Assembly: GCA_963725665.1 (NCBI GenBank)
Contig: CAVRZA010000011.1
Span: forward strand, 160,001-224,000
Direction of reading: 5' to 3'
DNA from: an uncultured Actinomycetes bacterium
GTDB taxonomy: Bacteria > Actinomycetota > Thermoleophilia > UBA2241
DNA length: 64,000 bases
Shown in pieces: positions 1 to 47,141 of this stretch; the stretch's first letter is position 1, and the number at the start of each line of letters is the position of its first letter. The translations under genes were made by a program, and so were the position numbers. Under the pieces are notes generated by a model. The model ran no database searches, was not told the origin of the DNA, and worked only from the letters and a program-made list of their open reading frames with translations.

Positions 1-1915
1 AAGAGCAAGGAGCTGCCGCTGCCGGGGCTCGAGCTCGAAGGCGTCGTGCAAGCCGTCGAGTTCCTGCGCGCCCAGACGCTGGGCGAGAGCCCCACCACCG
101 GCAAGCGTGTGGTCGTCGTCGGCGGCGGCGACGTCGCCTTCGACGCCGGCCGCACCGCCTTCCGCTGCGGCGCCACCACGGTCACCCTCGCCTGCATCGA
201 GGACGAGCGCACCCTGCCGGCCACGGAGGAGGAGCTCGAGGAGGGACGCGAGGAGCAGGTGCACGTCGAGTACTCGCTCATGCCGGTCGAGATCCTCGGC
301 GCCGACGGCAGGGCGACCGGAGTGAAGCTGCAGCGCTGCACGCTGGGCGAGCCCAACGAGCGCGGGTGGCGTCCGCCGCTGCCTGTCGAGGGCGACTACG
401 TCACCATCGAGGCCGACACCGTGGTCTTCGCCATCGGCCAGGCTCTGGTCGACGACTTCCTCGCCGGCGCCGACGGCGTGACCCTCGAGAGGGGGCAGAT
501 CGCCATCGATCCCGACACGATGATGACCGTCGCGCATGGGCGTGTTCGCGGGCGGCGACGCGGCCGCCCAGGGCCCCTGGACCGCCATCGAGGCCATCGC
601 GGCCGGCCGCCGCGCCGCCCGCGCGATGCACGACTTCCTGCGCGGCGAGCAGCTCGTGCGCGTCTGGGACCAGGAGGCCGACAAGGTCAAGATCCCGCAG
701 ACCGAGCTGGCGCCGCTCGAGCCGCAGGCGCGGCGCGTCATGCCGACGCTGCCGGGGCTCGAGCGGCGCACCACGTGGCAGGAGGTGCGCATCGGCTACA
801 CCGAGGAGGACGCCGTCGCCGAGGCCAAGCGCTGCCTCGACTGCGCCGTCTGCTCGGAGTGCCGCTCCTGCGAGCTCGCCTGTCCGGCGAGCGCCATCGA
901 CTTCAGCCAGACGGCCACCGAACAAGAGGTCACCGTCGGGGCGATCGTCATCGCCAGCGGGCACCAGGAGTTCGACGCCTCGCGCAAGATCCCCCTCGGC
1001 TGGGGCCGCTACGACAACGTGCTCACGCAGAGCCAGCTCGCACGCCTCCTCTCGGCGTCGGGCCCGACCGACGGGGAGCTGACACGGCCCTCCGACGGGG
1101 CCGAACCGAAGAAGATACTCATGCTCCAGTGCGTCGGCTCGCGCGACTGCACCTCGACCGGCAACGAGCACTGCTCGGCCGTGTGCTGTCTGTTCGCCAC
1201 GCTGCACGCCTCGCTCATCAAGCAGCACCTCCCCGACGCCGAGGTGACGATCGCTTACACCGACCTGCGTGCGCCCGGCAAGGCGCACGAGGAGTACTAC
1301 CGCCTCGTGCAGGAGCGGGGCGTGCGCTACGTGCGCGGGCGCGTCGGTGAGATCCTCGAGGAGCGCGACAAGCGCCTGACGGTGCGTTTCGAGGACAGCT
1401 TCACCGGCACCAAGGTGGAGGACACCTACGACCTCGTCGTGCTCTCGGCCGGCCTCGAGGCCTCGGCGGGCACGACGCAGATCGCGCGCGTGGCCGGTCT
1501 GCAGCAGGGTGCGGCGGGCTTCATCAAGGAGTACCACCCCAAGCTGCGCCCCGTCGACACGCAGCGCAGCGGCATGTTCGTCGCCGGCACGGCGCAGGGC
1601 CCCAAGAGCATCCCCGACTCGATCGCCCAGGCCAAGGCCGCCGCGGCGCGGGTCGTCTCGATGCTCTCCACCGGCTTCGTGCTCACGCCGGCTCAGGTCG
1701 CCGCGAGCGACCCCGAGATCTGCATCGGCTGCGGCGTCTGCGAGACCGTCTGCCCGCAGGCCGCCGTCACGCTGACGGTCGGTCCCGACGCGCACTCGGT
1801 CGTCGACGCCAACATCTGCCGCGGCTGCGGCATCTGCTCGGCGGAGTGTCCTTCAGGGGCCATCCAGTTGGGCGGCTTCTCCGATGACGAGATCCTCGCC
1901 GAGGTGCGGCTGTGA
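1..1915 (+). CDS. hdrA: HdrL-type heterodisulfide reductase subunit A (HdrA with inserted GltD-like NAD(P)H/FAD domain); 5'-partial, one frameshift near 529
   Basis: ORF 46-1350 begins with a GltD-like VVVVGGGDVAFD...VFAIGQ segment. The frame then shifts to ORF 536-1915: GVFAGGD...EAKRCLDCAVCSECRSCELACP, HdrA motifs QCVGSRD, HCSAVCC and FVAGTAQGPKSI, and two C-terminal CxxCxxCxxxCP clusters. Confidence 0.85.
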
Positions 1916-2466
1916 GTGCCGCCGCGACGGACACGACGACTAGTGGTGCAGCGGCGGTCGCGACTGCGGGGTGCACGCCTGTCGCGACCGTTGCCAAGTC
2001 GCACGCCGACGGCGAGATCGCCGCGCAGGCTCAAGCGGCAGCGGCGAGCGCGGCGGAGCGCACGATCGTCGCCTTCTGTTGCCGCGAGTGCGCCTACGCC
2101 GCGGCGGACGCCGCGGCCAACGCGCGCACCCCGCTGCCGCCCTCGGTGCGTCTCGTCCTGGTGCCTTGCACCGGCCGAGTCTCGCCGCTGCACCTGCTGA
2201 CCGCCCTCGCCCAGGGCGCCGACGGCGCCATGGTCGCCGGCTGTCTGCTCGGCCAGTGTCACTACCGCGAGGGCAACTTCAACGCCGTCGACCGGGTGGC
2301 GTTCACGGCCCGTCTGCTGGAGTCGGTAGGCGTCGAGCCAGAGCGCGTGCGCATGTTCACGATGAGCGCCGGCGAGCCGCCCAAGTTCGTGGCCGCGGTG
2401 CGCGAGATGGACAGGGTGATCGGTGGCCTTCCGCCGCTGCAGCGCGACGCCATGAAGGAGGCCTGA
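1912..2466 (+). CDS. mvhD: MvhD-like [2Fe-2S] hydrogenase/Hdr adaptor subunit
   Basis: AFCCRECAYAAAD, VPCTGRV and GCLLGQCHYREGN motifs; GTGA overlap with the upstream stop codon. Confidence 0.9.
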   Translation: MSAAATDTTTSGAAAVATAGCTPVATVAKSHADGEIAAQAQAAAASAAERTIVAFCCRECAYAAADAAANARTPLPPSVRLVLVPCTGRVSPLHLLTALAQGADGAMVAGCLLGQCHYREGNFNAVDRVAFTARLLESVGVEPERVRMFTMSAGEPPKFVAAVREMDRVIGGLPPLQRDAMKEA

Positions 2467-2471
2467 GAAGC

Positions 2472-2927
2472 ATGCCGCTGACGAACCGCGGACGCGAGAT
2501 CCTCGTGCGCGTGCCGGGCGCGTCCTTTCACAGCGGACACAACATCGGCTGCGAGATCGTGCGCCACGAGGAACTCTGCGTGGGCTGCGGCACCTGCGCC
2601 AAGAACTGCCCCACGGGGGCCAGCGAGCGCGGCGCGACCTTCGACGTGAACCAGCTCCTCGACGCCCCCGAGGGAACGAGGCGTGGCGCGCTCGGCGCCG
2701 CGCTGCGGCGCCTGGCGCGCCACGCCCCCGCGGCCGAGATCGAGGTGCCCGAGCGGGTCACCGTCTTTCGCACCATCGTTTACGACGCCGAGGCGTGCCT
2801 CGGCTGCGGCACCTGCGCGCGCAACTGCCCGGCCGATGCCATCGAGGCGCTGCCGCCGAACGTCGCTCCACAGGCCGGAGTCGGCACCGCCGCGCCGGCC
2901 GAGGCGACGACGGGGGTGACGTCGTGA
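2472..2927 (+). CDS. 2x[4Fe-4S] ferredoxin-like protein
   Basis: ATG at 2472; CVGCGTCAKNCP and CLGCGTCARNCP motifs separated by a long insert. Confidence 0.85.
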   Translation: MPLTNRGREILVRVPGASFHSGHNIGCEIVRHEELCVGCGTCAKNCPTGASERGATFDVNQLLDAPEGTRRGALGAALRRLARHAPAAEIEVPERVTVFRTIVYDAEACLGCGTCARNCPADAIEALPPNVAPQAGVGTAAPAEATTGVTS

Positions 2928-5614
2928 GCGCCGTCGGCACGAACGGCAACAACGGGGCGTCGGTCGCCCCCGCCGACACGGCTGCGACGGGCCCGAGCGT
3001 ACACGGCGCCGCCGGTGTTGCCGGCGGCGAGTCGCCGGTGCTCATCCTCTGCGAGTGCGCTGGGACGATGCCCAACATCGACTTCGCCGGCCTCGAGGAC
3101 GCCTTCGCCGAACGCGCCGAGGTGCTGAGCGGCCGTCACTGGTGCAGCCGCGAGGGCCAGGCCCGTCTGCTCGAGCTGATGGAGGCCGGCGATGGTCGCC
3201 AGCTCGTCTTCGCCGGCTGCTCGAAGGACTTCGCCAACCGGCGCTTCCACCGTCTCATGATGCGCGGGCTCGAGCTCGAGGTCGCCGACATCCGCGAGGG
3301 CTGCTCGTGGGCGCACGGAGCCGTGCGCGGCACGGAGCAGCCGCTCGACGAGATGGCCGCTGTGAGCGACAAGGCGGCGCGCATCATCGAGGCCGCCCTG
3401 ACGTACCCCGCGCCGGCGGCCGACCGCCTCGCCCGCGAGCGTCGCCGCGACTCGGTGCTCGTGATCGGCGGCGGCGTCACCGGCACGCAGGCCGCCTGCG
3501 AGCTGGCCCAGATGGGCCACCACGTCGACCTCGTCGAGACGCGGCCCTTCCTCGGCGGCCGCGCCGCTCGCATCGGCACCGTCTTCCCGACCAACGACTG
3601 CGGCCAGTGTCTGCCGACGACCGACGCCCAGGCCGGCGTGCGCAAGTGCTTCCACCGCAACCTCGCCATCGACGACCCCAAGCTGCACATCTGGCGCCGC
3701 GCCTCGGTCGAATCGGTGGACGGAGGGGCCGGCGACTTCGAGGTCGTCGTGCGCCGCCTGCCCAACATCGTCACCGACGCCTGCATCAATTGCGGCGCGT
3801 GTGAGACGGTCTGTCCCGAGATGAGCGCCGACGGTATGAACAAGGCCATCTACACGGAGTTCTACGACGGCCGCGTGGTGCGCACGGTCGACCTCGAGAC
3901 GTGCAGCTTCTGCGGCGCCTGTGTCGAGGCCTGTCCCGTCGAGGCCATCGACTTCGACCAGTCGCCCGAGCGCATGACGCTGCAGGCGGGCGCCGTCCTC
4001 ACAGCCATCGGCTGTGAGCCGGCGCCAGCCGAGCTCGTCACGCACCTAGGCTACGGCCACGAGCCGGTCGTCACGCAGACCGAGCTCGCCGAGCTTCTCG
4101 ACGACTGGGAGGCGCAGTCGGCCGAGGGACGCGCGCCGGCCAAGGAGCTGGTCATGATCCAGTGCGCCGGCTCACGCGACCGCCGTCGCCTGCCCTACTG
4201 CTCGCGCCTCTGCTGCATGATCGCCCTCAAGCACGCCATCCGCCTGCGCATGCTGTTCCCAGAGATGAAGGTGACCATCTGCTACCTCGAGTTGCGCGCC
4301 GCCGGCATCGGCTACGAGAACTGGTACCTCGAGGCGCGGCGTGCCGGGGTCGAGTTCCTGCGCGGCACGCCGCCGGAGGTGCAGTTCGACGAGAACGGGC
4401 GACCGGTGATCGAGGTCGACGACATGTCGGCAGGACGCAAGAGGACCCTGCGCCCCGACCTCGTGGTGCTCTCGAGCGGCATGGTCCCGGCGAACGACAC
4501 GCGGCGCATCGCCGAGGCTCTGCAGATCGAGCGCGACGAGGACGGCTTCATCGAGATCCTCGACCGCAAGAACCGGGCCACGGAGACCACGCGCGAGGGC
4601 GTCTTCGTCGCCGGATCGGCGGCGGGCCCGAAGGCCCTGGTGGAGTGCAACACGGAGGCCTCGGCGGTGGCCAGCGAGATCCACAACTTCCTCGCCAGCG
4701 CCGGGCGCCGCAGCGCGCCCGCCTCCGTCGTCGACGCGGCGATCTGCGTCGGCTGCGACATCTGCTTCGATGCCTGCCCCTTCAACGCCATTTCCCTGGT
4801 GGAGCGGCCGGCCGACGCGCCGCGTCCGGCTGAGGTGAAGGATCACGGCAAGCTGGCCGTCATCGACGAGGAGGCCTGTCACGCTTGCGGCATCTGCGCC
4901 GCCAACTGCCCCGAGATCGCCATCCGCCACAACCTCGCCGACGAGGCGCTCTTCGGCCGCCTGCGGATCATCACTGAGGGCGTCGACGAGCCCATCGTCG
5001 GCTTCTACTGCAAGGAGTGCGCCGGCGCCGCCATCAGCCTGGGCGGCCTGCGCCACGACAGCTACCCGCCCAACGTGCGGCTGATCGAGCTGCCCTGCCT
5101 CGGGCGAGTGAGCGCCCTGCACATCGCCGAGGCCGCGCGCCTCGGTGCCAAAGGCGTGTTCCTCGCCGGCTGCGCCGAGGGGCGCTGCCAGTATCGGACG
5201 GGAGATTCCAGCGCCGTCGAGCAGGCGCGCCTGGCGGCCGAACTGCTCGAGGACGCCGGACAGCGGCTGCCGATCGAGCTCTGGCACCTGTGCGCCGTCG
5301 ACGGCGCCAGCGTCGGCCGTCGCATCCGCCGCTTCTGCGACCAGGCTCTGAACGATGGGGACCCGGCTAACGACGGCCCCGGCAAGCGAACGGAGCGCGG
5401 TGCGCGCGAGCTGGTGACGGTGGTCGCCGGCGAGGCGGCCTGCGAGGGAGGTGAGAGCAGTGCCTGCAGCTCGCTACTAGCGAGGCACATGAGACCGTTC
5501 GCCGGCTGGCGGACGAGTGCCGCCAGTGCTACCAGTGCGGCCAGTGCGTGGGGGCGTGCCCGAGCGGGTTCGAGCTCGAGGAAGGCCCGCGGCTCGTCGT
5601 GCGCCTCATTCTGA
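2924..5614 (+). CDS. hdrA: HdrA-like flavoprotein fused to a C-terminal MvhD domain (QmoB-like architecture); true 3' end probably near 5454
   Basis: GTG at 2924; ILCECAG, IREGCSW, IGGGVTG, FPTNDC, QCAGSRD and YCSRLCC motifs; four ferredoxin motifs; C-terminal GFYCKEC/PCLGRV/AGCAEGRCQY. Confidence 0.85.
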   Translation: MSAVGTNGNNGASVAPADTAATGPSVHGAAGVAGGESPVLILCECAGTMPNIDFAGLEDAFAERAEVLSGRHWCSREGQARLLELMEAGDGRQLVFAGCSKDFANRRFHRLMMRGLELEVADIREGCSWAHGAVRGTEQPLDEMAAVSDKAARIIEAALTYPAPAADRLARERRRDSVLVIGGGVTGTQAACELAQMGHHVDLVETRPFLGGRAARIGTVFPTNDCGQCLPTTDAQAGVRKCFHRNLAIDDPKLHIWRRASVESVDGGAGDFEVVVRRLPNIVTDACINCGACETVCPEMSADGMNKAIYTEFYDGRVVRTVDLETCSFCGACVEACPVEAIDFDQSPERMTLQAGAVLTAIGCEPAPAELVTHLGYGHEPVVTQTELAELLDDWEAQSAEGRAPAKELVMIQCAGSRDRRRLPYCSRLCCMIALKHAIRLRMLFPEMKVTICYLELRAAGIGYENWYLEARRAGVEFLRGTPPEVQFDENGRPVIEVDDMSAGRKRTLRPDLVVLSSGMVPANDTRRIAEALQIERDEDGFIEILDRKNRATETTREGVFVAGSAAGPKALVECNTEASAVASEIHNFLASAGRRSAPASVVDAAICVGCDICFDACPFNAISLVERPADAPRPAEVKDHGKLAVIDEEACHACGICAANCPEIAIRHNLADEALFGRLRIITEGVDEPIVGFYCKECAGAAISLGGLRHDSYPPNVRLIELPCLGRVSALHIAEAARLGAKGVFLAGCAEGRCQYRTGDSSAVEQARLAAELLEDAGQRLPIELWHLCAVDGASVGRRIRRFCDQALNDGDPANDGPGKRTERGARELVTVVAGEAACEGGESSACSSLLARHMRPFAGWRTSAASATSAASAWGRARAGSSSRKARGSSCASF

Positions 5615-6690
5615 CCGAGGACACCGAGGCGCTGCTCGAGAACGAGGACGTCTGGCGCTGCAGCGAGTGCGGGAGCTGCACCGACGCCTGCCCCATGGAA
5701 GTGCCGGTGAAGGACATGATGGGCGCCGTGCGCGCGCTGCAGCGCGCGCACGGCGCCCGCGCCTGCCCCGAGCGTCAGGCGGCCGAGATCGCCACCCGCC
5801 ACCTGCAGCGTCACGAGCGCATCGACAACCTCACCTTCGGCGTGGCGATGGCGGCCAAGGGCCACGTCCCCAAGGACGTCGTCGGCGCGGCGGAGGCATT
5901 CGGCAGCATCGTCACCGAGAGGCTGCGCGGCCTCGCCAGACGCGAGGGCTCGGCCGCGCCGGACTCGTCCGGAGCGGCGGCGGCGACCGCGGCAACCGCC
6001 ACGGACGCCGATCCCGAGACCGCACCCCAGCCGTTCTACGGCGGCTGCTCGCTGCCCCAGGACGCGGAGGCGCACCGGCTCACGCTGGGCGTGGCCGCGT
6101 CGTTGGGCGTTCCCCTCGTCGAGGAGACGGCGGCAGGCTGCTGCGGTCATCCGTCGCGCGGCCAGGTGGCGGCCAAGTACGCCAGCGGACGCCCCGTGCT
6201 CACCGCCTGCCCGGCCTGCGACGCCAGCCTGCGCGAGGCGCAGATCGACACGACGCCTCTCTGGGAGGCGCTGGTCGCGCGCGCCCGGCGCGACGAGCGC
6301 GCGCTGCTCACCGCGGCGCCCACGTTCGTGCCCTACGTCGGCTGCCTCGGCGAGCGCGACCGCGCGCTCGCTTCGCTCGCGGACGCGGCCGCGCTCGCCG
6401 GCGCCACGGTGCACCAGTCCTTCCCCTCGCTGCACGGTGGCTGCTGCGGCGCGCTGGGCGGCATGTATCGCGGCGAGACGACCACGACCCGCAGGCTGCT
6501 CGACTTCGCCGCGCAGAGGCAGGCGCCCGTGGTCACCACCTGTCTGCTGTGCCGTGACAACCTGCGCTCGGCGGCGAGACGGCGCCGCACGCCCGTCGAC
6601 ATCCACTTCTGGCCCGAGTTCTTCTCCGCAGCGCCGCAGAACGGCACTCAGGCGGCGGGGACCGCGACCGCCAAGGGAGAGGCCCGATGA
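5455..6690 (+). CDS. HdrC-like ferredoxin domain fused to divergent CCG (HdrB/HdrD-like) domains; start uncertain
   Basis: The in-frame CRQCYQCGQCVGACP (from about 5518) lies upstream of the called start at 5548. Also WRCSECGSCTDACP, AGCCGH...TACPAC and GGCCGA...TTCLLC. Confidence 0.75.
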   Translation, partial: EQCLQLATSEAHETVRRLADECRQCYQCGQCVGACPSGFELEEGPRLVVRLILTEDTEALLENEDVWRCSECGSCTDACPMEVPVKDMMGAVRALQRAHGARACPERQAAEIATRHLQRHERIDNLTFGVAMAAKGHVPKDVVGAAEAFGSIVTERLRGLARREGSAAPDSSGAAAATAATATDADPETAPQPFYGGCSLPQDAEAHRLTLGVAASLGVPLVEETAAGCCGHPSRGQVAAKYASGRPVLTACPACDASLREAQIDTTPLWEALVARARRDERALLTAAPTFVPYVGCLGERDRALASLADAAALAGATVHQSFPSLHGGCCGALGGMYRGETTTTRRLLDFAAQRQAPVVTTCLLCRDNLRSAARRRRTPVDIHFWPEFFSAAPQNGTQAAGTATAKGEAR

Positions 6691-7367
6691 CCGAGAAGAC
6701 ACCCAGCCCCGCGAAGGAGACGCGCAAGGAGAATCCCTACGGCGCTCCCGCCGCCAACGCCTTCAAGCCTCGCTCGGCCGAGCGCAAGGACATCGTCACC
6801 ATGATCCTCGAGGACCCGCGCATGGTCGGACACACCGACGGCTTCCAGTCGTGCATCCAGTGCGGCATCTGCACGTCGGGTTGTCCGGCGGCGCGCTTCA
6901 CCGACTACTCGCCGCGCGAGATCGCCCGCAGGGCCCTCGACGGCGACGAGACGCTCCTCACCGACGACTCCGTGTGGTACTGCTACTACTGCTACACGTG
7001 CCAGAGTCGCTGCCCGCGCAAGAACAGCGTGGCGGTCATCAACCAGGTGATCCGCGGTTATCAGGTCGAGCACGGCCACGGTGCACCGCACGTGCAGCCG
7101 TTCGTCACCTGGTGCCAGCGCTTCTACGACGACGGCATGGGCGGAGATCCGCACCTCTTCTTCCCCGACATCATGGAGGCTTTCGGCCCCAAATACCGCG
7201 ACTACATGGAGCACCTGCTCGAGTTCCGCGAGGGGCTCGGCCTGGGGCCGCTCTTCCCCAACGAGAAGGCCGTCGCCGAGGTGCGCACCATCATGGAGGA
7301 GACCGGCTTTAAGGCGCGCCTGGAGAGCCTGGGCGCCTGGGCTGAAGAGCGTCCCGAAGACACGTAG
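6687..7367 (+). CDS. hdrC: Heterodisulfide reductase subunit C-like protein
   Basis: CIQCGICTSGCP and WYCYYCYTCQSRCP motifs; ATGA coupling to the upstream gene. Confidence 0.88.
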   Translation: MTEKTPSPAKETRKENPYGAPAANAFKPRSAERKDIVTMILEDPRMVGHTDGFQSCIQCGICTSGCPAARFTDYSPREIARRALDGDETLLTDDSVWYCYYCYTCQSRCPRKNSVAVINQVIRGYQVEHGHGAPHVQPFVTWCQRFYDDGMGGDPHLFFPDIMEAFGPKYRDYMEHLLEFREGLGLGPLFPNEKAVAEVRTIMEETGFKARLESLGAWAEERPEDT

Positions 7368-7411: not shown

Positions 7412-7720
7412 CTAGCCACGCCCCCCACCCTGCGGGTCGCCCGCCAGCTGCGCTGAGTGCCAGACGGCGACGATCCACACGGTTTCCGACTTCACACGGT
7501 AGAAGAAGCGGTAGGGCGCGACCACGATCTCGCGGAAGGGCAGGTCGGGAAACTCCGGCAGAACGCGCCCCGACTCGGGAAACTTGCGCAAGCGCGACAG
7601 CGACGCCTCGGCCTGCGTGCGCATAGCCGCGGCTGCCGCCGGGTTGTCGGCGCGGATGTAGGCGAGGGCCGCGAGGAACTGCGCCCGAGCGGTGGGCGTG
7701 AACAGGACCTTTCGTCTCAC
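7412..7720 (-). CDS. Type II toxin, RelE/ParE family
   Basis: 102 aa basic protein with FPESGR...PYRFFYRV...VWH; start overlaps the antitoxin stop. Confidence 0.85.
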   Translation of the reverse strand: MRRKVLFTPTARAQFLAALAYIRADNPAAAAAMRTQAEASLSRLRKFPESGRVLPEFPDLPFREIVVAPYRFFYRVKSETVWIVAVWHSAQLAGDPQGGGRG

Positions 7721-7992
7721 GGCCTGCCGAGCAGCTCGTCAGCCTCGGCCAGCACGACCTCGAGGTCGTAGCCGCCACCGCCTTCGATCTCGGCCTCGCC
7801 GCGGGCCAGGAGGCGCAGGATCTCAAGCTCGTGCTGCGTGCGTGCGTAGGTCTGCGTGCTGACCATGACGGCGGCCGCCCGGCCGCGCTGCGTGATGAAC
7901 ACGGGCTCGTGCGAGCTCGCGGCCCGCTTGATGACGCCGGCGGCGTCCTGGCGTAGGTCGGAGATGGGCACGATATTCGGTACTGAAGCCAT
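7717..7992 (-). CDS. Type II antitoxin, Phd/YefM family
   Basis: PISDLRQ...EPVFITQRGRAAAVMVS motif; AGGAGG RBS at 8001-8006. Confidence 0.9.
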   Translation of the reverse strand: MASVPNIVPISDLRQDAAGVIKRAASSHEPVFITQRGRAAAVMVSTQTYARTQHELEILRLLARGEAEIEGGGGYDLEVVLAEADELLGRP

Positions 7993-8182: not shown

Positions 8183-8672
8183 GTGCCTCCAGCCTCATAC
8201 ATCGCCGAGCGACGAGGGTACCTGCTCGCGCTGGCGCGCATCTTCCTCGGTGTGCTCTTCCTGGAGACCTGGGTCGAGAACCTGGTCAAGGGACTGTACT
8301 GGACGAACGGCTACGCCGACTTCATCCGCAACTACGCCGACAAGAACGTGCTGCCCCTCTACCCCACCATCCTCGACAGGGTCGTGATCCCCCACGCCGC
8401 CTTCTTCAGCAAGGCGCAGATGTTCACCGAGCTCGTGATCATCGGGCTCTTCCTGCTCGTGGGGTTCCTTACGCCGGTCGCCGGCGTCGTCGCCGGGCTG
8501 TTCGCGCTCAACTTGCTGCTGGCGACGCGAGGCACGGGGGACTGGTGGGGGACCTACGCGACTGCTCGTCGTGCTCGGCTTTCTCGTCGGGCTGGCCCAG
8601 GCAGGACGCACGTGGGGCATCGACGCCCGGCTCGCCGACAGGAATCCTCGCCCCGGCCTGCCGCTCTACTAG
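8183..8672 (+). CDS. DoxX/TQO small-subunit-like membrane protein (frameshift near 8560)
   Basis: LARIFLGVLF...ELVIIGLFLLVGFLT; the shifted frame continues LLVVLGFLVGLAQAGRTWGIDARL to TAG at 8672. Confidence 0.7.
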
Positions 8673-9459
8673 CTCTCCGACCGTCTCGGGCGGGCGCGGG
8701 TGCCCCCGTCGAAGCCGCAGCGGTAGCCACAAGCGGACCAGGGTGACGAAGATGCCGCCGAAAGCCCCCACCGTGCCGCGCGCCGTGCCGGCGATCTTCG
8801 AGCGCCCGGCGCGCGGCCGACTGTGCGCCTCCACGAACGCGATGCGGGCGCCGGCAAGGTGGGCCTTGACGAGCATCTCCGTGGTCCAGGCGAACGGGCG
8901 CGGCTCCATCGTTCAGGCGGCGCAGAAGGCCGGCGTCGATGCCACGGAAGGGTCCGTTGTCGGGCACGTCGAGGTCGAAGAGCAGGCGCAGACACGCGGC
9001 GGCGAGGCGGTTGCCGAGGCGTTGGTGCGTGGGCATGCCGCGAGCGGCATGCCCACGCACGCCGATCACCAGGTCCGCCTCGCCGCGTAGCAGGGGCCCG
9101 ACGAGCAGGGGCAGGTCGCGCGGGTCGTCGCTGCCGTCGCCCTCCATGAAGACGACGGCGCCGGCGCCGCGCGCCAGCGCGGCGCCGGCGCCCGTCAGAC
9201 AGGCATAGCCGTACCCGCGCCGCGGTTCGTCGACGACCCGCGCGCCGCGCCTCTCGAGTAGCTCGCGACTGCCGTCGCGCGAGCCGTTGTCGACGAAGAC
9301 CGCGCGCTCGAGGAGCCCGGGCTCGGCCGCAAGCTCGGCGAGCAGGCCAGGCAGCGCCGGGGCCTCGTCCAGGACCGGGATGACGACCACCCACGGCGTC
9401 GGCTTTTGGGCCGTCCCGAAGCCGGTCTTCCTGCTACGCTCTGCTTGTGATGGGTCCAC
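8669..9459 (-). CDS. Glycosyltransferase family 2 (DPM1-like); frameshift near 8910, 3' end approximate
   Basis: VIPVLDEA, VDNGSRDGS, EPRRGYGYAC, FMEGDGSDDP and GPFRGI motifs; shifted frame gives FAWTTEM...RAGRSKIAGT. Confidence 0.8.
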
Positions 9460-10769
9460 GCCCGAGAGCCTTCATCGGTCTCCTGCTCGTCTGCGCCGGC
9501 CTGCTCGCGATCGCCGCCACCGGCGACCTACGCCAGCAGATGGCACTGTACCTCACCTGCTGGGCGCTGGCCGTGGCCGGCTACCTGCTGATCGTCTCGG
9601 CGCCGCGCTCCCTGCCCCTGTGGGTCGTCGTGAGCGCGGCGCTCCTTCTCGGCCTCGCCCTGCTGCCGCGCACGCCGAGCCTCTCCGACGACATCTACCG
9701 CTACGTCTGGGACGGCCGCGTGCAGCTTGCCGGACACAACCCCTACCTGCAGGCGCCGGCGAGCGCAGCGTTGAACGACGTCGCCTACGCCCAGCGCGGC
9801 CTCATCAACCACCCCGGCGTGCGCACGATCTACCCGCCCCTCGCCGAGCTCCTGTTCGCCGCCGCGGCGCTTCTCGGCGGAGGGATCGTGGCGCTCAAGC
9901 TGCTCGTGGGACTGGCCGGGCTGTTGACGGCCGGCGCGCTGGCCCTTCTCGCGCCGGCCGAGAGGCGACGCGAGGCGCTCACCCTCTACCTGCTCTGCCC
10001 GCTCGTTATCCAGGAGACGTGGGGATCCGGCCACGTCGAGATCGTCGCCGTTCTGTTCGCCGTGCTCGCCGCGGCACTGGTCGCGCGCGGGCGCGACGGC
10101 TGGGCCGGCCTCTCGCTCGGGCTGGGAGCGGCCGTGAAGCTTACCCCGGCGGCGCTCCTCATCCCGGCGCTCGTCGGCGGCCGGGCGAAGCCCGGCCGCC
10201 TCATCCCAGCCTTCATCCTCGCCTTCGCCCTGCCCTACGTGCCCTACCTGCTCACGGGGGGCGCCCTCGGCTCGCTGCAGGACACGGGAGCGCAGCCGCA
10301 GTCGAACCCTTCCCTCTTCGGCCTCCTCGACCTGGTGCTGCCCTACCGAGCAGCCGTGGCCGTCGCGGCGGCCCTGTTCGTGGCGGGCGCCGTGCTGATC
10401 GCGCGCCGGCTGCGCGGGCGCGCGCGCACGGCGCCCGCCTTCGCCTGGGCCGCCACCCTCTTCGTCCTGCTGCTGCCGGTTGCCCAGCCGTGGTACTGGC
10501 TCACCCCGCTGGCGCTCGGCATCGCCGGCGGCGTGCTCCTGCCCCTGTTCCTGGGCCTCGCGGCGCCATTCGGCTACGCCGCCTTCGCCTACCCGAGCTT
10601 CAAGCGCTGGGCGGCGCTTGTGACCTACCTGCCGCTCCTGACGCTCGTCCCGAGCCTTCTCCGTTGGATCCACGGGAGAAGGAGCGGCGAGACAGACCTA
10701 CCCCACGACGAGCTCGCCGCAGCAGCACACGACGCAGGCGGCGGGACCACGCGCGTGGAGTATCCTTAG
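9447..10769 (+). CDS. GT-C fold membrane glycosyltransferase (GT87/DUF2029-like)
   Basis: Polytopic protein with SDDIYRYVWDGRVQLAGHNPY, TIYPP, GHVE, VKL and QPWY motifs. Confidence 0.8.
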   Translation: MMGPRPRAFIGLLLVCAGLLAIAATGDLRQQMALYLTCWALAVAGYLLIVSAPRSLPLWVVVSAALLLGLALLPRTPSLSDDIYRYVWDGRVQLAGHNPYLQAPASAALNDVAYAQRGLINHPGVRTIYPPLAELLFAAAALLGGGIVALKLLVGLAGLLTAGALALLAPAERRREALTLYLLCPLVIQETWGSGHVEIVAVLFAVLAAALVARGRDGWAGLSLGLGAAVKLTPAALLIPALVGGRAKPGRLIPAFILAFALPYVPYLLTGGALGSLQDTGAQPQSNPSLFGLLDLVLPYRAAVAVAAALFVAGAVLIARRLRGRARTAPAFAWAATLFVLLLPVAQPWYWLTPLALGIAGGVLLPLFLGLAAPFGYAAFAYPSFKRWAALVTYLPLLTLVPSLLRWIHGRRSGETDLPHDELAAAAHDAGGGTTRVEYP

Positions 10770-10776
10770 TCCTATC

Positions 10777-12660
10777 GTGGCACTGGACGAACGCAAGCTC
10801 GCCGTCGCCATCGTCGCACGCCCGCCGATCCCCGGACTGGTGAAGACACGGCTCGCCGAATCGCTCGGGGAACAGCGCGCCTGCGAGGTCTACCTCACCC
10901 TCCTGCGCGAGACGATGGCCTCGCTCGCGCGACTGGACGGCGACGACCTTTTCCTGGCGCTCGCTCCCGGCCGCGATGGACAGATGCCTCTCGCGGGGCA
11001 GGACACACTCCGCCTCCTTGGCCTCCCGAACGGCGACACCTGGACCGTCCTCTCCCAGCGTGGCGCCCACCTCGGCGAACGCCTCGGCAACCTGCTCGAG
11101 GATCTCTTCGCGCACGGCTACGAGCAGGCCGTCATCGTCAACAGCGACAGCCCCGGCCTGCCGGTCGAGTACCTCGAGACGACGGGCCGCTGGCTGTCGG
11201 AGGGCAACGGCGACGGGCACGCCGGAGTCGTCTTCGGCCCCACGCCCGACGGCGGCTTCTACCTCGTCGCCGTGGCGCGCCCGGCATGGCTGCGCCACGG
11301 GCGCGCCGTCAAAGCCGCACTGGCGCGCGGGCCGATGGGCACGAGCGAGGCGCTCGAGAGCGTCATCGCGGCACTCCGCGAAGAAGGCCTGCGCTCGCGA
11401 CTGCTCCCCTTCTGGGTCGACGTCGACGACGAGACCGATCTGGCCCTGGCCGGTCGTCTCCTCCCCCAGACCGGATGGGCCCCGCAAGGCCACCCGCGAG
11501 GTGAGCCGCTCGTCGAGTTGCGTGAGGTCTTCCTGCACGTCACCAACCGCTGCGGCACGCGCTGCCCCCACTGCTATGCGCGCCTGAAGGACGACACCGC
11601 CGAGGAGCTCGCCACCGACCAGTGGCGGAGGGTGATCGATGAGGCGGCCGCCCTCGGTGCGCGCAGCTTCGTCCTTCTGGGCGGCGACCCGTTCGCACGC
11701 CGGGACATCTTGGAGCTCATCGATCACGTCACTGGGCCGCTGCAGCGCAAGGCGCGTGTCTTCTTCAACCGTGAGCTCTCACCCGAGGCGGCACGGCGCC
11801 TGGCCACCGTGGGACGCGGCCGGCTGACGCCGTTGCTCAGTCTCGACGGGCCACCGGCCATCAACGACGAGCTGCGCGGAGCGGGCAACTTCGACGCCGC
11901 GATGCGCTCGCTCGAGAGCCTGCAGGCCGCCGGCCTGCAGCCCGTCCTCAACACAGTCGCCCTGCGGCCGGTGCTCCCGGGGCTGCCGGAGTTGGCGCGC
12001 ACCGTCGGCGAGCGCGGCGTGAGAAGGCTGCACCTGATCCTGCCCCACCAGCGCGGTGGCCTCGAGGAGCACCTGGAGATGGCGCCCAGCGGCGAGGAGC
12101 TCCTGACCGCCTTCGAGGAGCTGCTGCCCGCGGCAGCCGAGGCCGGCGTCGTGGTCGACAACCTGGTTGCCTGGAAGCGGCGGCTGCGCGCGCCGCAGGA
12201 TTTCTGCAACGCCGGCTGCAAGGACATCGCCATCGATCCCTCCGGCCTCGTCTATGCGTGCGCTATCACGTGCGGCGACCCTGCCTTCGTGGCCGGTGAC
12301 ACGCGTCAGCAGAGCCTCGAGGACATCTGGCGCCACTCGCCCGCCTTCCGACTGCTGCGGGCCGCGCGCGCCCGCGACCGCGCCGCGTGCGCCGCCTGCG
12401 ACGTCGTCGACGCCTGCGGCGGCGAGTGCTGGATGCAGGCGCACTACGCGGCGCGCGCCCGCGGGCGCGCCGGCGGCTTCGGCGCCGAGTTCCCCTACTG
12501 CGGGCTGGTACGGCCTTTCTTGCGCGAGCTGGCCCGCAGCGCCGAGGAGGCCAGCGAGGTCACCGTTCTGGGCGGGCGGTGCAGCGCCGATGAAGTGACC
12601 GTGCTCAGGGGGCAGCGCGGCGCCGGCGAGGCTGATCTCACCCTATTCGACTGCATATGA
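10777..12660 (+). CDS. Fusion: TIGR04282/DUF2064-type transferase plus radical SAM/SPASM domain
   Basis: N-terminal ARPPIPGLVKTRLA, QRGAHLGERL, SDSP, GPTPDGGFYL and DVDDETDL motifs. C-terminal CGTRCPHC (CxxxCxxC), GGDP, and SPASM cysteines CNAG...YAC...CAACDVVDACGGEC...PYC. Confidence 0.88.
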   Translation: MALDERKLAVAIVARPPIPGLVKTRLAESLGEQRACEVYLTLLRETMASLARLDGDDLFLALAPGRDGQMPLAGQDTLRLLGLPNGDTWTVLSQRGAHLGERLGNLLEDLFAHGYEQAVIVNSDSPGLPVEYLETTGRWLSEGNGDGHAGVVFGPTPDGGFYLVAVARPAWLRHGRAVKAALARGPMGTSEALESVIAALREEGLRSRLLPFWVDVDDETDLALAGRLLPQTGWAPQGHPRGEPLVELREVFLHVTNRCGTRCPHCYARLKDDTAEELATDQWRRVIDEAAALGARSFVLLGGDPFARRDILELIDHVTGPLQRKARVFFNRELSPEAARRLATVGRGRLTPLLSLDGPPAINDELRGAGNFDAAMRSLESLQAAGLQPVLNTVALRPVLPGLPELARTVGERGVRRLHLILPHQRGGLEEHLEMAPSGEELLTAFEELLPAAAEAGVVVDNLVAWKRRLRAPQDFCNAGCKDIAIDPSGLVYACAITCGDPAFVAGDTRQQSLEDIWRHSPAFRLLRAARARDRAACAACDVVDACGGECWMQAHYAARARGRAGGFGAEFPYCGLVRPFLRELARSAEEASEVTVLGGRCSADEVTVLRGQRGAGEADLTLFDCI

Positions 12661-13448
12661 GGCTACTGACGGGCGCGGTCGTGGACCGGGCACAGGAAGC
12701 GGACGAGAAGTCCCGAGGAATGATCAGCGTCGTCATCCCCGCCCTCGACGAGGAGCTCCTCCTGCCACGCTGCCTGGCCTCGCTCGAGGACCAGATCGAG
12801 CACGAGCTCATCGTCGTCGACGGCGGCAGCCACGACCGGACGATCGACCTCGCGGAGAGCGCCGGGGCGCTGGTCGTGCGCAGCCCGCGCGCCAACCGCG
12901 GTCTGCAAATGAACCTCGGGGCGCGCCGCGCTCGGAGCGACGTGCTGCTCTTCCTGCACGCCGACTCCTGCCTGCCACCGGGGGCGCTCGCGGCTGTCGA
13001 GGCGCTGCTGGGCAGCCGTGACGACGTCGTCGGCGGCTGCTTCACGATGCGCCTCGACAGCCGCTCTCCCCTCTGCCGCCTCGTGGCTTGGGGTGGGGAC
13101 CTCTACCACCGCACGGGCCGCTCGCTCTTCGGCGACCGAGGCGTCTTCGTACGCCGCGACGCTTTCGAAGCCGCAGGCGGCTTCCGCGAGCTGCCGATCA
13201 TGGAAGACGTCGACCTCGGCCGCCGCCTACGGGAGTCGCGGGGGCCTTCAGGCGCGCGCGAAAAGAGACGACTGGTGATGCTGCCAGGCCCAGTCGTCAG
13301 CAGCGCGCGCGCCTTCGAGCGCCAGGGGGCCCTGCGTCTGCTGGCACGGATCCTGCTGGCCTGCGCCGCCTATAAGTGCGGGCTGCCGACCGACCACATC
13401 GCCCGCCTCTATCCTGGAGTGGCGGGAGGCCGGCTCATCGCCAACTGA
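12657..13448 (+). CDS. TIGR04283-type GT2 glycosyltransferase (alternative start at 12720)
   Basis: ISVVIPALDEE, VVDGGSHD, QMNLGA, LFLHADS, FGD, GGF..IMEDV and SSAR motifs. Confidence 0.88.
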   Translation: MRLLTGAVVDRAQEADEKSRGMISVVIPALDEELLLPRCLASLEDQIEHELIVVDGGSHDRTIDLAESAGALVVRSPRANRGLQMNLGARRARSDVLLFLHADSCLPPGALAAVEALLGSRDDVVGGCFTMRLDSRSPLCRLVAWGGDLYHRTGRSLFGDRGVFVRRDAFEAAGGFRELPIMEDVDLGRRLRESRGPSGAREKRRLVMLPGPVVSSARAFERQGALRLLARILLACAAYKCGLPTDHIARLYPGVAGGRLIAN

Positions 13449-17354: not shown

Positions 17355-18527
17355 TCAAGCCGCCGCGGCGGACCTGAACATCGTCTCGTCGCGAAGCATC
17401 GCCCAGATGACGTTCACCCGCCGCCGGGCAAGCGCGATCACGGCTTGGTGATGGCGCTTGCCCTCGGCCCGCTTGCGGTCGTAGAAGGCGCGCGAGGGCG
17501 GGCTGCGCAGACTGGCGAAGGCGGATTGGTAGAAGACCCGCTTAAGGACCTTGTTGCCCCCCTGCATACGGCGCACGTTGCCGCTTCGTTTGCCCGAGTC
17601 GCGGGCCACCGGGATGAGGCCGGCGTAGGCGGCCAGGTGGTCGGCGGAGGCGAAGCTGCTCAGCTCGCCCACCGCCACCAGGAACTCAGCGCCCAGGCGG
17701 GGGCCCATGCCCGGCAGGCTCACCAGGATCTCCGCCTGGGGGTGGGAGAAAAAACGCCGCTCGAGCTCCTGGTCGAGCCGCGCCAGGCGCTCCTTTGTGG
17801 CCAGCACCTCGCTCGCCAGGTCGGCGACGATCGCGGCGCTCACCTCCTCGGCGGGCAGAGAAACGCTCTGGGCGCCCGCCGCCTTAAGGGCGCTCTCGGC
17901 CAGCTTGGCCGCTCCCCGGCAGCCGCGGGCGCGCAGGTAGGCCTCCAGGCGGCGGGCGCCGGCGCGGCGTACCTCGACCGGCGTGCGGTAGCGCTGCACG
18001 AGGAGCAGGGCGCCCTTGGTGGTGAGGTCCAGGGCGCGCTCCAGGCCGGGGAAGACGCCCACCAGCGCCGCGCGCAGGCGGGTGACGGCCCGTGTCTGGT
18101 CTTGAACCAGGTCGCGCCGCCGCGAGGTCAGCAGGGCCAGCTCGGCCAGCACCGCCTCGCTGGGGCGCAGCTCGGAAAGGTCACGGCGCGTGCGTGCCTG
18201 TTCGGCGATGATGCGCGCATCGCGGGCGTCGGTCTTGGCCTCTCCCCGGTAGGCGTCGCGGGAGCGGTTCACGGCCACGCCCGGCAGGTAGAGCACGCGC
18301 TCCTCGCCGCTCCACAGCACGGCCAGGGCGAGGGCGGCGACGCCGCCGGGGATGTCGAGAGCCCAGGTCGTCTGGCCGGCCTGAGCTCTGGCCTCGGCGA
18401 TCAGCCGCCGCAGCTCGTCCTCGTCGTTCTCCACCCGGCGAGAGAAGACGAGGCGTCCCTCCTCATCGATCGCCGCCGCCCAGTGGAAGTCCTTGCCCGC
18501 GTCGATGCCCACCCACAGCCCAGCCAT
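17355..18527 (-). CDS. IS110 family transposase/recombinase
   Basis: GIDAGK, KTDARDA, SLPGMG, AYAGLIP..RDSG, GGNKVLK and ALARR motifs; AGGAGG RBS before the ATG at 18527. Confidence 0.95.
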   Translation of the reverse strand: MAGLWVGIDAGKDFHWAAAIDEEGRLVFSRRVENDEDELRRLIAEARAQAGQTTWALDIPGGVAALALAVLWSGEERVLYLPGVAVNRSRDAYRGEAKTDARDARIIAEQARTRRDLSELRPSEAVLAELALLTSRRRDLVQDQTRAVTRLRAALVGVFPGLERALDLTTKGALLLVQRYRTPVEVRRAGARRLEAYLRARGCRGAAKLAESALKAAGAQSVSLPAEEVSAAIVADLASEVLATKERLARLDQELERRFFSHPQAEILVSLPGMGPRLGAEFLVAVGELSSFASADHLAAYAGLIPVARDSGKRSGNVRRMQGGNKVLKRVFYQSAFASLRSPPSRAFYDRKRAEGKRHHQAVIALARRRVNVIWAMLRDETMFRSAAAA

Positions 18528-18539
18528 GGCCACCTCCTC

Positions 18540-18712
18540 GCTTCCGCCGACCCCTTGCCCGTGGAGCACCCCGCCGGCACCTCCCTACACAGCGATCGCT
18601 CGCCGATCTCTATCAGCGGTCAGGGCGTCCAAAGGGGCCGAGGGGCCATTCCTCCCGAGCCATGCGAGCGGCAGAGACATGACAGCCATCCTCGACCCTT
18701 CTGGGCGTCCCG
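18540..18712 (-). ncRNA. Putative IS110 bridge RNA
   Basis: ~190-nt 5' non-coding end with a stem 18690-18704/18629-18643. Internal 8-mers match the element end (18606-18613 = 17340-17347) and the flank (18648-18655 complementary to 17334-17341). Confidence 0.65.
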
Positions 18713-19469: not shown

Positions 19470-20282
19470 CTAGGTCAGGATGTCCCGCCGCCCGAAGATG
19501 TACCAGGCGAGCGCGGTGACGCCACCGATCGTCGCCGCGTAGGTCAGGACGGCGTTGCGGATCGGGGCCCAGTAGATGGGATCGCGGAAGAGGTCGAGGA
19601 AGGTCGTGCTGTACGCCGTGAACGTGTACGGCTTCATGAAATCGAAGTAGCTGAAGCCGTTGAGGATCGAGAGCACGATGAAGATCACCATGGCGATGAT
19701 GGAGGCCGTGAGACTCGAGTTGGTGAACGTCGAGAACAGGACGGCCAGCGAGATGAGACACATCATGCCCAACAGGATGAGGCCGTAGGTAAGGAGCGTG
19801 AGCCACACGGCGTAGGGGATGCTGACCGTCGTCCCAGAGAGAGTCACGAGCGGCTTCAGCCCAAACACGATGCCGCCCGCAAGCAGACCGCCGCCCCAGA
19901 CGAGCAGCATGCCGATGATCACGTAGACGATGGCGATGCCCCATTTCGAGAAGAGGACGGTCGAGCGGCTCACGGGACGCGAGAGCCACGTCTTCATCGT
20001 CCCTTGCTCGGCCTCGCCGGCTATGGGATACGCCCCCGCCATCGAGGCGAGCAGCGGCAGCAGAAACAACGAGAGCGCCGCCATGGCCGAGAGGGGTACG
20101 AACATGCCGTTGCTCAAGACCTGATCCAGGAAGGGCGGGCCCTCGCCCTCGCTGTGCGGGTTCGAGGAAGAGAGGTAGAGGGCCAGCACCTCGAGGAAGG
20201 GGATCGCCAGGAGGCCTGCCCAGCCGAGGTAGGTGCGCTTCTGGGCGAGGATCTTCTGCAACTCCCGCCCGAGGCTTCTCAT
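19470..20282 (-). CDS. ABC-2 type transporter permease
   Basis: IAGEAEQGTMKTWLSRPVSRSTVLFSK motif; multiple transmembrane helices. Confidence 0.88.
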   Translation of the reverse strand: MRSLGRELQKILAQKRTYLGWAGLLAIPFLEVLALYLSSSNPHSEGEGPPFLDQVLSNGMFVPLSAMAALSLFLLPLLASMAGAYPIAGEAEQGTMKTWLSRPVSRSTVLFSKWGIAIVYVIIGMLLVWGGGLLAGGIVFGLKPLVTLSGTTVSIPYAVWLTLLTYGLILLGMMCLISLAVLFSTFTNSSLTASIIAMVIFIVLSILNGFSYFDFMKPYTFTAYSTTFLDLFRDPIYWAPIRNAVLTYAATIGGVTALAWYIFGRRDILT

Positions 20283-38464: not shown

Positions 38465-38491
38465 CATCGCTGCAACGGGCGGCGCCACAGC

Positions 38492-41452: not shown

Positions 41453-41489
41453 CCGCCCATCGAGAAGAGGGACCTTCGAGGAGGCGCAG

Positions 41490-47140: not shown

Positions 47141-47141
47141 T

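Follow-up and report, generated by a model that had tools for sequence, protein, structure and literature searches.

The window, that is the whole 64-kb stretch of DNA that was analysed, harbors a gene cluster which would make a 5-substituted 5-deoxypentose from SAM for an acceptor in the cell envelope. Methylated arsenic is the likeliest substituent, and we assign to this reading a probability of 0.45–0.47. Its basis is formed by domains, conservation, kinship with ArsM fusions and alternation of selenocysteine with cysteine, all of them computed. The five genes named in the preliminary description (those of a DoxX-like protein, a DPM-like GT2, a GT-C enzyme, a DUF2064-radical SAM-SPASM fusion and a TIGR04283 GT2) are all present in the window and are listed in Table 1.

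Table 1. Features of the cluster, in positions of the window.
Feature	Position	Strand	Details
DoxX/DoxD-like small membrane protein	8183..8672	+	PF07681 E 1e-4, below gathering score; frameshifted near 8540-8560
DPM1/MtxS-like GT2	8508..9459	-	PF00535 E 7e-16; frameshift 8910-8913; homology ends near 8750; start codon uncertain
GT-C membrane glycosyltransferase, GT87/MptA-B-like	9447..10769	+	PF09594 E 2e-13; atlas clusters PF26314/PF09594
N-terminal DUF2064 (TIGR04282-like) domain of the fusion	10777..11460	+	PF09837 E 1.5e-18
Radical SAM core and SPASM domain of the fusion	11497..12543	+	PF04055, PF13186
C-terminal tail of the fusion, F-D-C-I-U-G-Y-stop	12646..12669	+	probable Sec codon TGA 12658-12660 = residue 628 of 630
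Candidate bacterial SECIS hairpin	12673..12691	+	7-bp stem, one mismatch in the window copy, GU-containing loop
TIGR04283-family GT2	12720..13448	+	202-203 bits, cut-off 182; aligned from model position 1

The start of the TIGR04283 GT2 gene was set so that residue 2 of the protein meets position 1 of the model. The fusion gene probably ends at 12669 instead of 12660, its in-frame TGA looking like a selenocysteine codon. Homologues of the DoxX-like and of the DPM-like GT2 genes match in two frames. Other genes of the window are frameshifted too, and all these frameshifts are probably sequencing errors. The GT-C protein has ~10 hydrophobic segments in a hydropathy scan and an SDD motif at residues 80–82. 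The DPM-like GT2 has AglJ, PpgS and Dol-P hexose transferase as its best NCBIfam matches, all below cut-off, and is a probable polyprenyl-phosphate sugar synthase. No sigma-70-like promoter and no Rfam match were found, and the terminator count was at chance level. A tRNA-Cys called by ARAGORN (12357–12454) lies antisense within the radical SAM gene and is probably a false call.

As was stated in the preliminary description, the radical SAM part of the fusion is not ArsS. It obtains 18.9 bits with a local ArsS profile, TIGR04167 (cut-off 300 bits) is outside the best 25 of 53 matches, each of at least 44 bits, and PF12345 (DUF3641) is absent. Clustering with another characterised family was not observed either: the NCBIfam matches, led by MftC and StsB, reach no cut-off (120 bits at best vs 265), and an atlas search returned generic SPASM clusters only. 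In a tree of 135 rows a single clade of 68 (SH-aLRT 99) holds all 27 ArsM-fused and all 19 DUF2064-fused rows, the DUF2064-fused group being sister to the ArsM-containing group and not nested within it. ArsM is the fusion partner in 27 of the 47 sister rows and in 47 of 83 further relatives; it mostly forms the C-terminal part of the fused protein, but the N-terminal part in P0144, P0156 and P0158. The ArsM-containing group also includes four fusions with other methyltransferases, two with TusA, and PqqD-like domains. Among the 25 top-scoring fused ArsM domains the cysteine of GCGxP is kept in 25, SNCV in 24 and GEC in 18, as counted with a profile built from 11 of the same 25 domains; one of 11 fused domains tested passes PRK11873 (213–273 bits, cut-off 263). 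All SPASM cysteines are lost in 32 ArsM-fused relatives (in 35 of 150 relatives overall), which fits a chemistry without need of auxiliary clusters. ArsM was found in eight of 80 loci selected by DUF2064, five times with ArsS and three times fused to the SPASM family (L015, L039 and L065, where the fused protein adjoins a TIGR04282 gene), never with both. ArsS (10 loci) and the SPASM family (8 loci including the split L004) show no overlap, which is close to the ~1 expected by chance.

The fusion protein very probably contains selenocysteine, read from its TGA, in a C-x-U tail, because FDCI is followed by TGA-GGN-(Tyr/Phe/Cys)-stop in 6 of the 6 DNAs read, a covarying hairpin lies behind this stretch and 104 relatives that read on align a cysteine at the TGA. 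Past the TGA the codon varies between GGC and GGA, and the second stop between TGA, TAG and TAA. In controls a second stop at that position occurs in 0 of 41 window genes and 0 of 13 cluster genes. The TGA alone carries no weight, 24 of the 41 window genes and 11 of the 13 cluster genes ending in TGA. The tail position was aligned across 262 family proteins, 138 of which end there; the cysteine forms mostly run on as VL, and conservation past the TGA extends over two residues only. In the hairpin 41 of 42 cells pair, four of seven pairs change on both sides and 1 of 500 shuffles is as high; single-sequence folding z-scores are weak (-2.05 to +0.58), and a simple hairpin rule has a background of 15 positives among 133 other TGAs. 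The hairpin matches the bacterial SECIS, a 7-bp stem with a G-loop (10.1101/2022.07.06.499078). None of selA, selB, selC and selD was seen within the 64 kb. Locus L004 contains another Sec candidate, its DUF3179 gene being interrupted by a TGA.

The tail, searched as a single pattern, occurs in 64 of the 68 rows of the family clade vs 3 of 67 outgroup rows. Its first cysteine tracks the auxiliary-cluster ligands (77 proteins with them; 49 Ser forms without), and the Ser forms all belong to one clade and therefore count as one event. This cysteine may be a Fe-S ligand; C626 as an arsenic ligand was downgraded in view of this tracking. Prediction of a complex of the tail (residues 598–627, without U-G-Y) with the radical SAM/SPASM core, SAM and 4Fe-4S gave 0.03 (mark 0.32), a value counted neither for nor against the arm.

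The DUF2064 and TIGR04283 partners are common to the window cluster and the ArsS arsenosugar system. The tail of ArsS shows the same alternation of Cys and TGA, then Gly (L020, L079), and the reference selenoprotein ends U-G-G; the two tails are analogous, not homologous. ArsS is fused to ArsM in L029, as are the relatives of the window enzyme, and a VTT-domain neighbor is shared with the arsenosugar system in L015 and L065. In contrast to ArsS, the window enzyme carries SPASM instead of DUF3641 and is fused to DUF2064, while its cluster has no adjacent arsM and adds the DPM-like GT2, GT-C and DoxX. The absence of ArsM from the window, claimed earlier, was upheld by Pfam on 62 selected ORFs and by scanning all six frames with a profile of ArsM; ArsM is likewise absent from five other loci with the fusion, over spans of up to 10 kb on each side, and this speaks against arsenic. 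No phosphorylase, epimerase or sel genes were seen in the cluster. A C-terminal Cys/Sec tail is also present in two other kinds of radical SAM enzymes, ArsL and NF040546 (CUAEP/CCAEP tail), the latter named as an uncharacterised CU-motif selenoprotein. ArsL binds As(III) through C-terminal cysteines (RCCLKC tail) and transfers an aminocarboxypropyl group, unlike the route proposed here. The window protein differs from both by its F-x-C-x-U-G tail and SPASM domain, and neither model is among its best 25 NCBIfam matches. Of the arsenic or selenium sugar suggested in the preliminary description, the arsenic part is strengthened by the ArsM-fused kin and the probable ArsS-like Sec tail, whereas selenium is best placed in a residue of the enzyme, not in the sugar.

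The earlier possibility that the fusion and its neighborhood recur nowhere else did not come true. All 120 matches listed contain the DUF2064-radical SAM-SPASM fusion, and it was found at no fewer than five of the 80 loci, a lower bound, the scan having used a generic DUF2064 pattern. DoxX is a constant member of the module (beside the fusion in 5/5 fusion loci listed), and the DPM-like GT2 with GT-C is found there in 4/5. The arrangement recurs and is therefore not due to chance. Coupling to the TIGR04283 GT2 holds in the window, but it is seen in only one of the five other fusion loci listed; this enzyme is an occasional partner and not part of the core, an accessory that possibly forms a branch to a soluble glycoside. 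In relatives P0095 and P0267 the GT-C is joined to the DUF2064-radical SAM protein in one polypeptide. In plasmid searches no family member spanned 80% of P0159, the GT-C had no match, and the TIGR04282 matches were all distant.

A similar layout is known from mycobacteria. The MTX sugar derives from MTA, the genes of MTA phosphorylase and epimerase belong to the MTX cluster, and the pathway is not known to include a radical SAM enzyme. Rv0540, between the genes of MtxS and MtxT, is presumably a DUF2064 protein, and in the window cluster too DPM-like GT2, DUF2064 and GT-C occur together. MtxS (Rv0539) and MtxT (Rv0541c) move a 5-methylthio-pentose via a polyprenyl carrier. The MTX pathway is likened here by description, in that a 5-substituted 5-deoxypentose is handled by a GT-C together with a synthase of polyprenyl-phosphate sugar. 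The heteroatom in the window pathway may accordingly be other than arsenic: a sulfur or selenium acceptor would be adenosylated, or 5'-methylthioadenosine salvaged, resulting in a methylthio- or methylseleno-pentose cap like mycobacterial MTX. We consider this rather unlikely. Methylthioxylose is indeed the cargo of the only characterised DPM-like and GT-C pair citable from the accessible literature, but MTA requires no radical enzyme. MTA phosphorylase and the epimerase are not among the Pfam matches of selected ORFs beside the cluster in the window and the five loci. TusA is fused to relatives P0146 and P0153, yet the commonest fusion partner by far is ArsM. L003 and L027 both have an upstream gene for a PLP enzyme of the cysteine synthase family, accompanied in L027 by Rrf2 and ThiS; the window and three of the five loci are without these sulfur genes. 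The weak likeness of DoxX to the thiosulfate:quinone oxidoreductase DoxD and the absence of ArsM and ArsS from all 14 DPM+GT-C loci speak for sulfur or selenium.

The N-terminal domain of the fusion scores 67 bits with PF09837 (25.8 required) and 113 bits with TIGR04282 (cut-off 134; orthologues 127, 130 and 139). The fold neighbors are 3cgx (Z 25.6) and the guanylyltransferases 7p97, 2i5e and 6bwg (Z 19.5, 19.1 and 17.2), and D124, D215 and D217 are invariant (41/41). From its model the domain is a probable CofC-like nucleotidyltransferase, and the four glycosyltransferases counted previously are better described as three plus this enzyme. In sequence grouping the fused DUF2064 joins the DPM/GT-C type of Terriglobia with a support of 98, a point against arsenic, the neighbors of that type being a different radical SAM family and a methyltransferase other than ArsM. 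The AlphaFold model of the DUF2064 and radical SAM two-domain protein, calculated without the last three residues (U-G-Y), has pTM 0.90. Such a union with a nucleotidyltransferase-like domain would also suit a radical SAM enzyme acting on an activated NDP-sugar by dehydration, decarboxylation, oxidation or epimerisation, with the Sec tail as a redox or H-atom donor arm. BlsE, DesII and BtrN, which could serve as precedents, are among the sequence or fold neighbors, but with Z of 22.8, 18.9 and 14.4 vs 29.8 they do not surpass peptide maturases. In 9 of 10 unfused DPM+GT-C loci a radical SAM gene of another kind is present, whereas the repeated ArsM fusions are left unexplained by this chemistry, and we find it improbable.

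The radical SAM motif CxxxCxxC is located at residues 259–266, and the SPASM domain has eight cysteines (477, 481, 495, 538, 541, 547, 551 and 575), kept in 118–120 of the 120 homologues listed. The fold and this pattern are common to SPASM maturases (MftC, PqqE, anSME, StsB), the closest fold being that of anSME (4k36, Z 29.8), while scores far below cut-off and the lack of a leader-binding domain and of an evident precursor distinguish the window protein. A RiPP- or anSME-like maturase of the tail or of a separate peptide is very improbable: the SPASM fold is nearest to anSME, CteB, ChlB and SkfB, MftC and StsB are the best matches and a PqqD-like domain stands at the N-terminus of many sister proteins, but the window protein has DUF2064 in its place and no PF05402, the SPASM cysteines are all missing in the 35 of 150 relatives mentioned above, and among 834 short ORFs of six loci the cross-locus matches listed are shadow frames of larger conserved genes, no precursor standing out by eye.

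In the preferred arsenic pathway, the C-x-U arm of the radical SAM/SPASM selenoenzyme would bind a trivalent methyl-arsenical, ArsM being encoded elsewhere or the arsenical coming from the surroundings. The 5'-deoxyadenosyl radical would then be added to the arsenical with formation of DDMAA or a congener, as by ArsS, which makes DDMAA redox-neutrally. From sequence, such As-adenosylation by the fusion enzyme seems slightly favored. Removal of adenine would give a pentose 1-phosphate, a step with no gene in the cluster; one paper gives only adenine removal and ribose derivatisation on the way from DDMAA to arsenosugar or arsenolipid. Judging from its fold, the fused DUF2064 domain would nucleotidylate the pentose 1-phosphate. 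The family assignments suggest that the DPM-like GT2 would load the sugar on polyprenyl phosphate and the GT-C would pass it on to a lipid or glycan on the outer side of the membrane, the TIGR04283 GT2 providing a cytoplasmic branch. The arsenic sugar may in this way be delivered to a lipid or surface acceptor.

The window protein unites the radical step with what is probably the activation step on one polypeptide, which makes them directly testable; heterologous assays without Sec or a Cys substitute would probably fail. Of the 262 family proteins examined, 138 are annotated as ending at the probable Sec codon, so that gene callers may be cutting a selenoprotein family short. Surveys that rely on arsS underestimate organoarsenic synthesis if the SPASM family linked to ArsM is an analogue of ArsS. 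A wider proposal is more doubtful: many anaerobes and soil bacteria may use, in place of ArsS, another radical SAM family which forms C-As bonds and evolved independently, with a SPASM domain and a C-x-U tail and so far absent from lists of selenoproteins. In Thermoleophilia-like Actinomycetota this family would be fused to the activating nucleotidyltransferase and would feed a polyprenyl-phosphate route by which an arsenic sugar caps a lipid or glycan of the cell surface. If this is true, DUF2064 modules would serve more generally to process 5-substituted pentoses derived from SAM, whether these contain arsenic, sulfur or perhaps selenium.

The five-gene cluster lies where the preliminary description had placed it, as judged by Pfam and NCBIfam models. 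The TIGR04282-type domain noted there stands as a DUF2064 domain, its TIGR04282 score falling short of the cut-off (113 vs 134 bits), while the GT2 named as TIGR04283-type does exceed its NCBIfam cut-off. One frameshift splits each of the DoxX and DPM-like genes. Unrelated genes are split in the same way, which suggests indel errors across the whole window and makes sequencing error likelier than decay. In line with the earlier remark, ArsM was detected neither among 62 selected ORFs (Pfam) nor in a six-frame scan of the window with a local ArsM profile.

Features of the window and of related genome loci (L-numbers)
Feature	Coordinates (strand)	Basis or remark
Heterodisulfide reductase-like cluster	46-7367 (+)	HdrA-like, MvhD/FlpD, CCG-domain, ferredoxin proteins; directly upstream
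Phd/YefM antitoxin, ParE toxin	7412-7992 (-)	between Hdr-like cluster and DoxX
DoxX-like protein, first cluster gene		Pfam/NCBIfam; one frameshift
DPM-like GT2, divergent		Pfam/NCBIfam; one frameshift
GT-C, GT87-type		Pfam/NCBIfam
Fusion ORF	from 10777 (+)	DUF2064, radical SAM, SPASM (Pfam/NCBIfam); 627 codons to first stop
tRNA-Cys (ARAGORN)	12357-12454 (-)	antisense within radical SAM gene, GC-rich DNA; probably a false call
TIGR04283 member	from 12720	above NCBIfam cut-off
IS110-family transposase	17355-18569 (-)	
Split ABC transporter gene	19473-21366	
Molybdenum hydroxylase cluster	36484-55618	XdhC, MobA-like, FAD/2Fe-2S and Mo-binding subunits, PucR; with dehydrogenases, permease, two carbamoyltransferases, deiminase-like gene
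Split permease gene	49791-51479	
Split carbamoyltransferase gene	52518-53568	
Split deiminase-like gene	54730-55618	
L004 DUF3179 gene	3651-4613 (-), 4617-5728 (-)	split at in-frame TGA
L020 ArsS	8219-9220 (+)	TGA stop at tail Cys position
L079 ArsS	8844-9959 (+)	TGA stop at tail Cys position
Unnamed radical SAM family, L031	14179-15333	
Unnamed radical SAM family, L016	1610-2665	
Third radical SAM/SPASM type, L023	10602-13151	one stop-to-stop ORF with GT-C
Third radical SAM/SPASM type, L078	11864-13111	
Third radical SAM/SPASM type, L016	2611-3675	
Cysteine synthase-family PLP enzyme, L027	5466-7333	upstream of DoxX; Rrf2 and ThiS accompany
Cysteine synthase-family PLP enzyme, L003	5895-6926	upstream of DoxX

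The fusion is not unique to the window. As a query it gave 135 matches among 7999 scored candidates, and all 120 matches listed (45-84% identity) carry the same three domains. It is found in at least five genome loci, each from an Actinomycetota or Thermoleophilia MAG; the scan retained 80 of 585 confirmed stretches, so that locus counts are lower bounds. DoxX adjoins the fusion in all five and the DPM-like and GT-C genes in four, TIGR04283 accompanying it only in L001, which lacks the latter pair; among these loci and the window both outputs occur together in the window only. In two relatives (P0095 and P0267) GT-C is additionally fused in front of the DUF2064-radical SAM protein, which ties GT-C to the same pathway. 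The alcohol dehydrogenase, ABC transporter and Lgt genes downstream are syntenic with L003, L004 and L027, hence the cluster looks chromosomal and inherited. A distant TIGR04282 gene occurs on 48 Burkholderia plasmid records, the 40 listed (H21-H60) all being B. glumae.

The AlphaFold model of the fusion (pLDDT 89, pTM 0.90) shows a disordered linker at residues 599-618. The first fold neighbour of the N-terminal DUF2064 domain is 3cgx (Z 25.6). Since CofC-type guanylyltransferases (Z 19.5, 19.1 and 17.2) and IspD (Z 15.8) outscore the only named glycosyltransferase among 50 fold-match rows (Z 13.1), the modelled domain is read as a nucleotidyltransferase, contrary to its NCBIfam name. The SPASM enzyme is complete, with three core and eight auxiliary cysteines conserved in 118-120 of 120 homologues. 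It is, as had been proposed, of a type other than ArsS: the SPASM domain is present and comparison with ArsS was negative. Its radical SAM part reached no NCBIfam family cut-off among the best 25 of 53 matches (top 120 bits vs 265).

All 120 listed homologues end in F-x-C-I (FDCI in 116), followed in six of six DNAs by TGA, GGC/GGA, a Tyr/Phe/Cys codon and TGA/TAG/TAA. TGA is a common stop here (24/41 window genes, 11/13 cluster genes) and by itself means little as evidence for selenocysteine; a second stop three codons past the first occurs in none of these controls (0/41 and 0/13). The TGA position is where 138 of 262 family proteins end; 104 read through with Cys, 18 do neither and 2 are unplaced. 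A hairpin with a 7-bp stem and a GU-containing loop begins 12-13 bases past the TGA. It is paired in 41 of 42 cells of the six DNAs from which the structure was itself drawn, with both sides changed in 4/7 pairs; its score was equalled by 1/500 shuffles, and slid controls pair to at most 59.5%. Single-sequence folding z-scores range from -2.05 to +0.58, the minimum-energy fold of the L004 sequence differs from the proposed hairpin, and a simple hairpin rule is also positive at 15/133 other TGAs. The criteria match those in the available part of 10.1101/2022.07.06.499078. The fusion is thus probably a selenoprotein with TGA as the Sec codon, in which case it would end at 12669, before the TIGR04283 start. 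In L004 a second candidate, with a hairpin downstream of its TGA, belongs to DUF3179, a family in the selenoprotein list of PMC9312934; this gene adjoins a pyridine nucleotide-disulphide oxidoreductase ~2 kb upstream of DoxX. The ArsS genes of L020 and L079 carry TGA in place of the tail Cys codon found in other ArsS and are, judging by sequence, selenoprotein forms.

The best 150 of 19,691 representatives related to the radical SAM part were retrieved and 66 of them scanned against Pfam. Next after the DUF2064 fusions, these were mostly methyltransferase-fused, with arsenite methyltransferase PRK11873 as the best model (213-273 bits; 1/11 above the cut-off of 263). The cysteine motifs of ArsM are present in the fused domains. 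A tree of 135 near-complete cores (quick method, SH-aLRT only; 34 partial or distant rows excluded) contains one 68-row clade (support 99) with all 27 ArsM-fused, all 19 DUF2064-fused, 4 other-methyltransferase and 18 other rows, within which the DUF2064 fusions, together with two unfused proteins, form the sister group of the other 47 (support 90). The tail motif occurs in 64/68 members vs 3/67 outside. ArsM is fused at either the N- or the C-terminal end, and 83 more relatives came from a profile search, 47 of them with ArsM, their sources including Elusimicrobia, Wallbacteria, Acidobacteria, Gemmatimonadetes and Nitrospiria. ArsM occurs in 8 of 80 loci, with ArsS in five and fused to the family in three; TIGR04282 adjoins all three fusions and TIGR04283 two. 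ArsS and the family never occur together in the 80 loci (10 and 8 loci, about one overlap expected by chance).

All eight SPASM cysteines are missing in 35 of the 150 relatives. The first tail Cys is present in 77/77 proteins with a detected tail and first auxiliary-cluster ligands, and Ser replaces it in 49 proteins lacking these ligands, which form one lineage and therefore count as one event. This correlation suggests that C626, the first tail cysteine, may bind the first auxiliary cluster, and we infer that the Cys/Sec two places beyond is the working residue. Members P0146, P0153, P0179, P0140 and P0141 are fused to TusA, to DUF5714 (a component of the MbdU selenoprotein model as well) or to a non-ArsM methyltransferase, often with an N-terminal PqqD-like domain; the family is therefore not uniform. 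P0122, an LpxB fragment with a 90%-identical SPASM half, is probably a chimeric or misassembled record.

The ArsM fusions, the TIGR04282/04283 neighbours without ArsS and the Cys/Sec arm make an ArsS-like activity the simplest reading, i.e. the family most simply would do what ArsS does. The route to mycobacterial methylthioxylose (MTX) begins at methylthioadenosine, which is chemically a near analogue of DDMAA, and its cluster presumably also includes a DUF2064 gene. The product of MtxS (Rv0539) is the polyprenyl-phosphate donor of methylthioxylose, which MtxT (Rv0541c) passes to lipoarabinomannan (available parts of PMC8780516, PMC12088412, PMC8081860). DDMAA arises when ArsS couples the 5'-deoxyadenosyl radical to DMA(III), a reaction that needs no net reductant (PMC13598754; 10.64898/2026.04.29.721666), and ArsL requires its C-terminal cysteines to hold As(III) (10.1101/2024.02.01.577332; 10.64898/2026.04.29.721666), according to the available parts. 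By analogy, adenosylation by the radical SAM enzyme would be followed by loss of adenine via an enzyme encoded elsewhere, nucleotidylation, loading onto polyprenyl phosphate and transfer on the outer side of the membrane.

For this whole route with arsenic the probability is only about 0.47, because of the loci with DPM-like and GT-C genes, the Terriglobia kinship and the mixed fusions. ArsM and ArsS are both absent from 14/14 DPM-like plus GT-C loci among the 80, although in L045 ArsS adjoins a GT-C fused to TIGR04283. Ten of the 14 lack the fusion, and in nine of these a different radical SAM gene is present. In Terriglobia loci the protein it encodes ends in an S-S-C-T-like tail recalling that of ArsS, but the adjacent methyltransferase is, with at most 27 bits, no ArsM. 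The fused DUF2064 domain groups with the Terriglobia type as its sister (support 98), so the family may be a recruit to a module handling sulfur or another substituent, and a sulfur or selenium sugar as product is a less likely but substantial alternative. Modification of the activated sugar by the radical SAM domain is improbable, and a peptide maturase is the least probable reading of all.

Eight loci (L031, L036, L038, L050, L061, L066, L074, L016) hold an unnamed radical SAM family adjoining DoxX-DPM-DUF2064 modules; 7/8 have an S-S/A-C-T-T tail (the L061 ORF stops early), five a non-ArsM methyltransferase and seven a conserved protein without Pfam family. The same module also occurs with a third radical SAM/SPASM type, which resembles TIGR04317/04311 but scores below cut-off.

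Among the full-text matches listed, TIGR04282 received passing mentions only and the radical SAM/SPASM family of the fusion none; DUF2064, Rv0540 and the combination of arsenosugar, ArsS and glycosyltransferase gave no match, most subscription journals lying outside the scope. The available parts of PMC12159101, PMC13077682 and PMC7261415 hold nothing on the family. TIGR04167 (ArsS) is the sole radical SAM selenoprotein in the 87-family table of PMC9312934 and in the parts covered of the deep-Sep supplements (PMC12013277); the Haft preprint adds NF040546, and its supplements may list more. The cluster would work like the ArsS and MTX systems, yet by membership tests belongs to neither, and the radical SAM family of the fusion is probably an unlisted selenoenzyme family.
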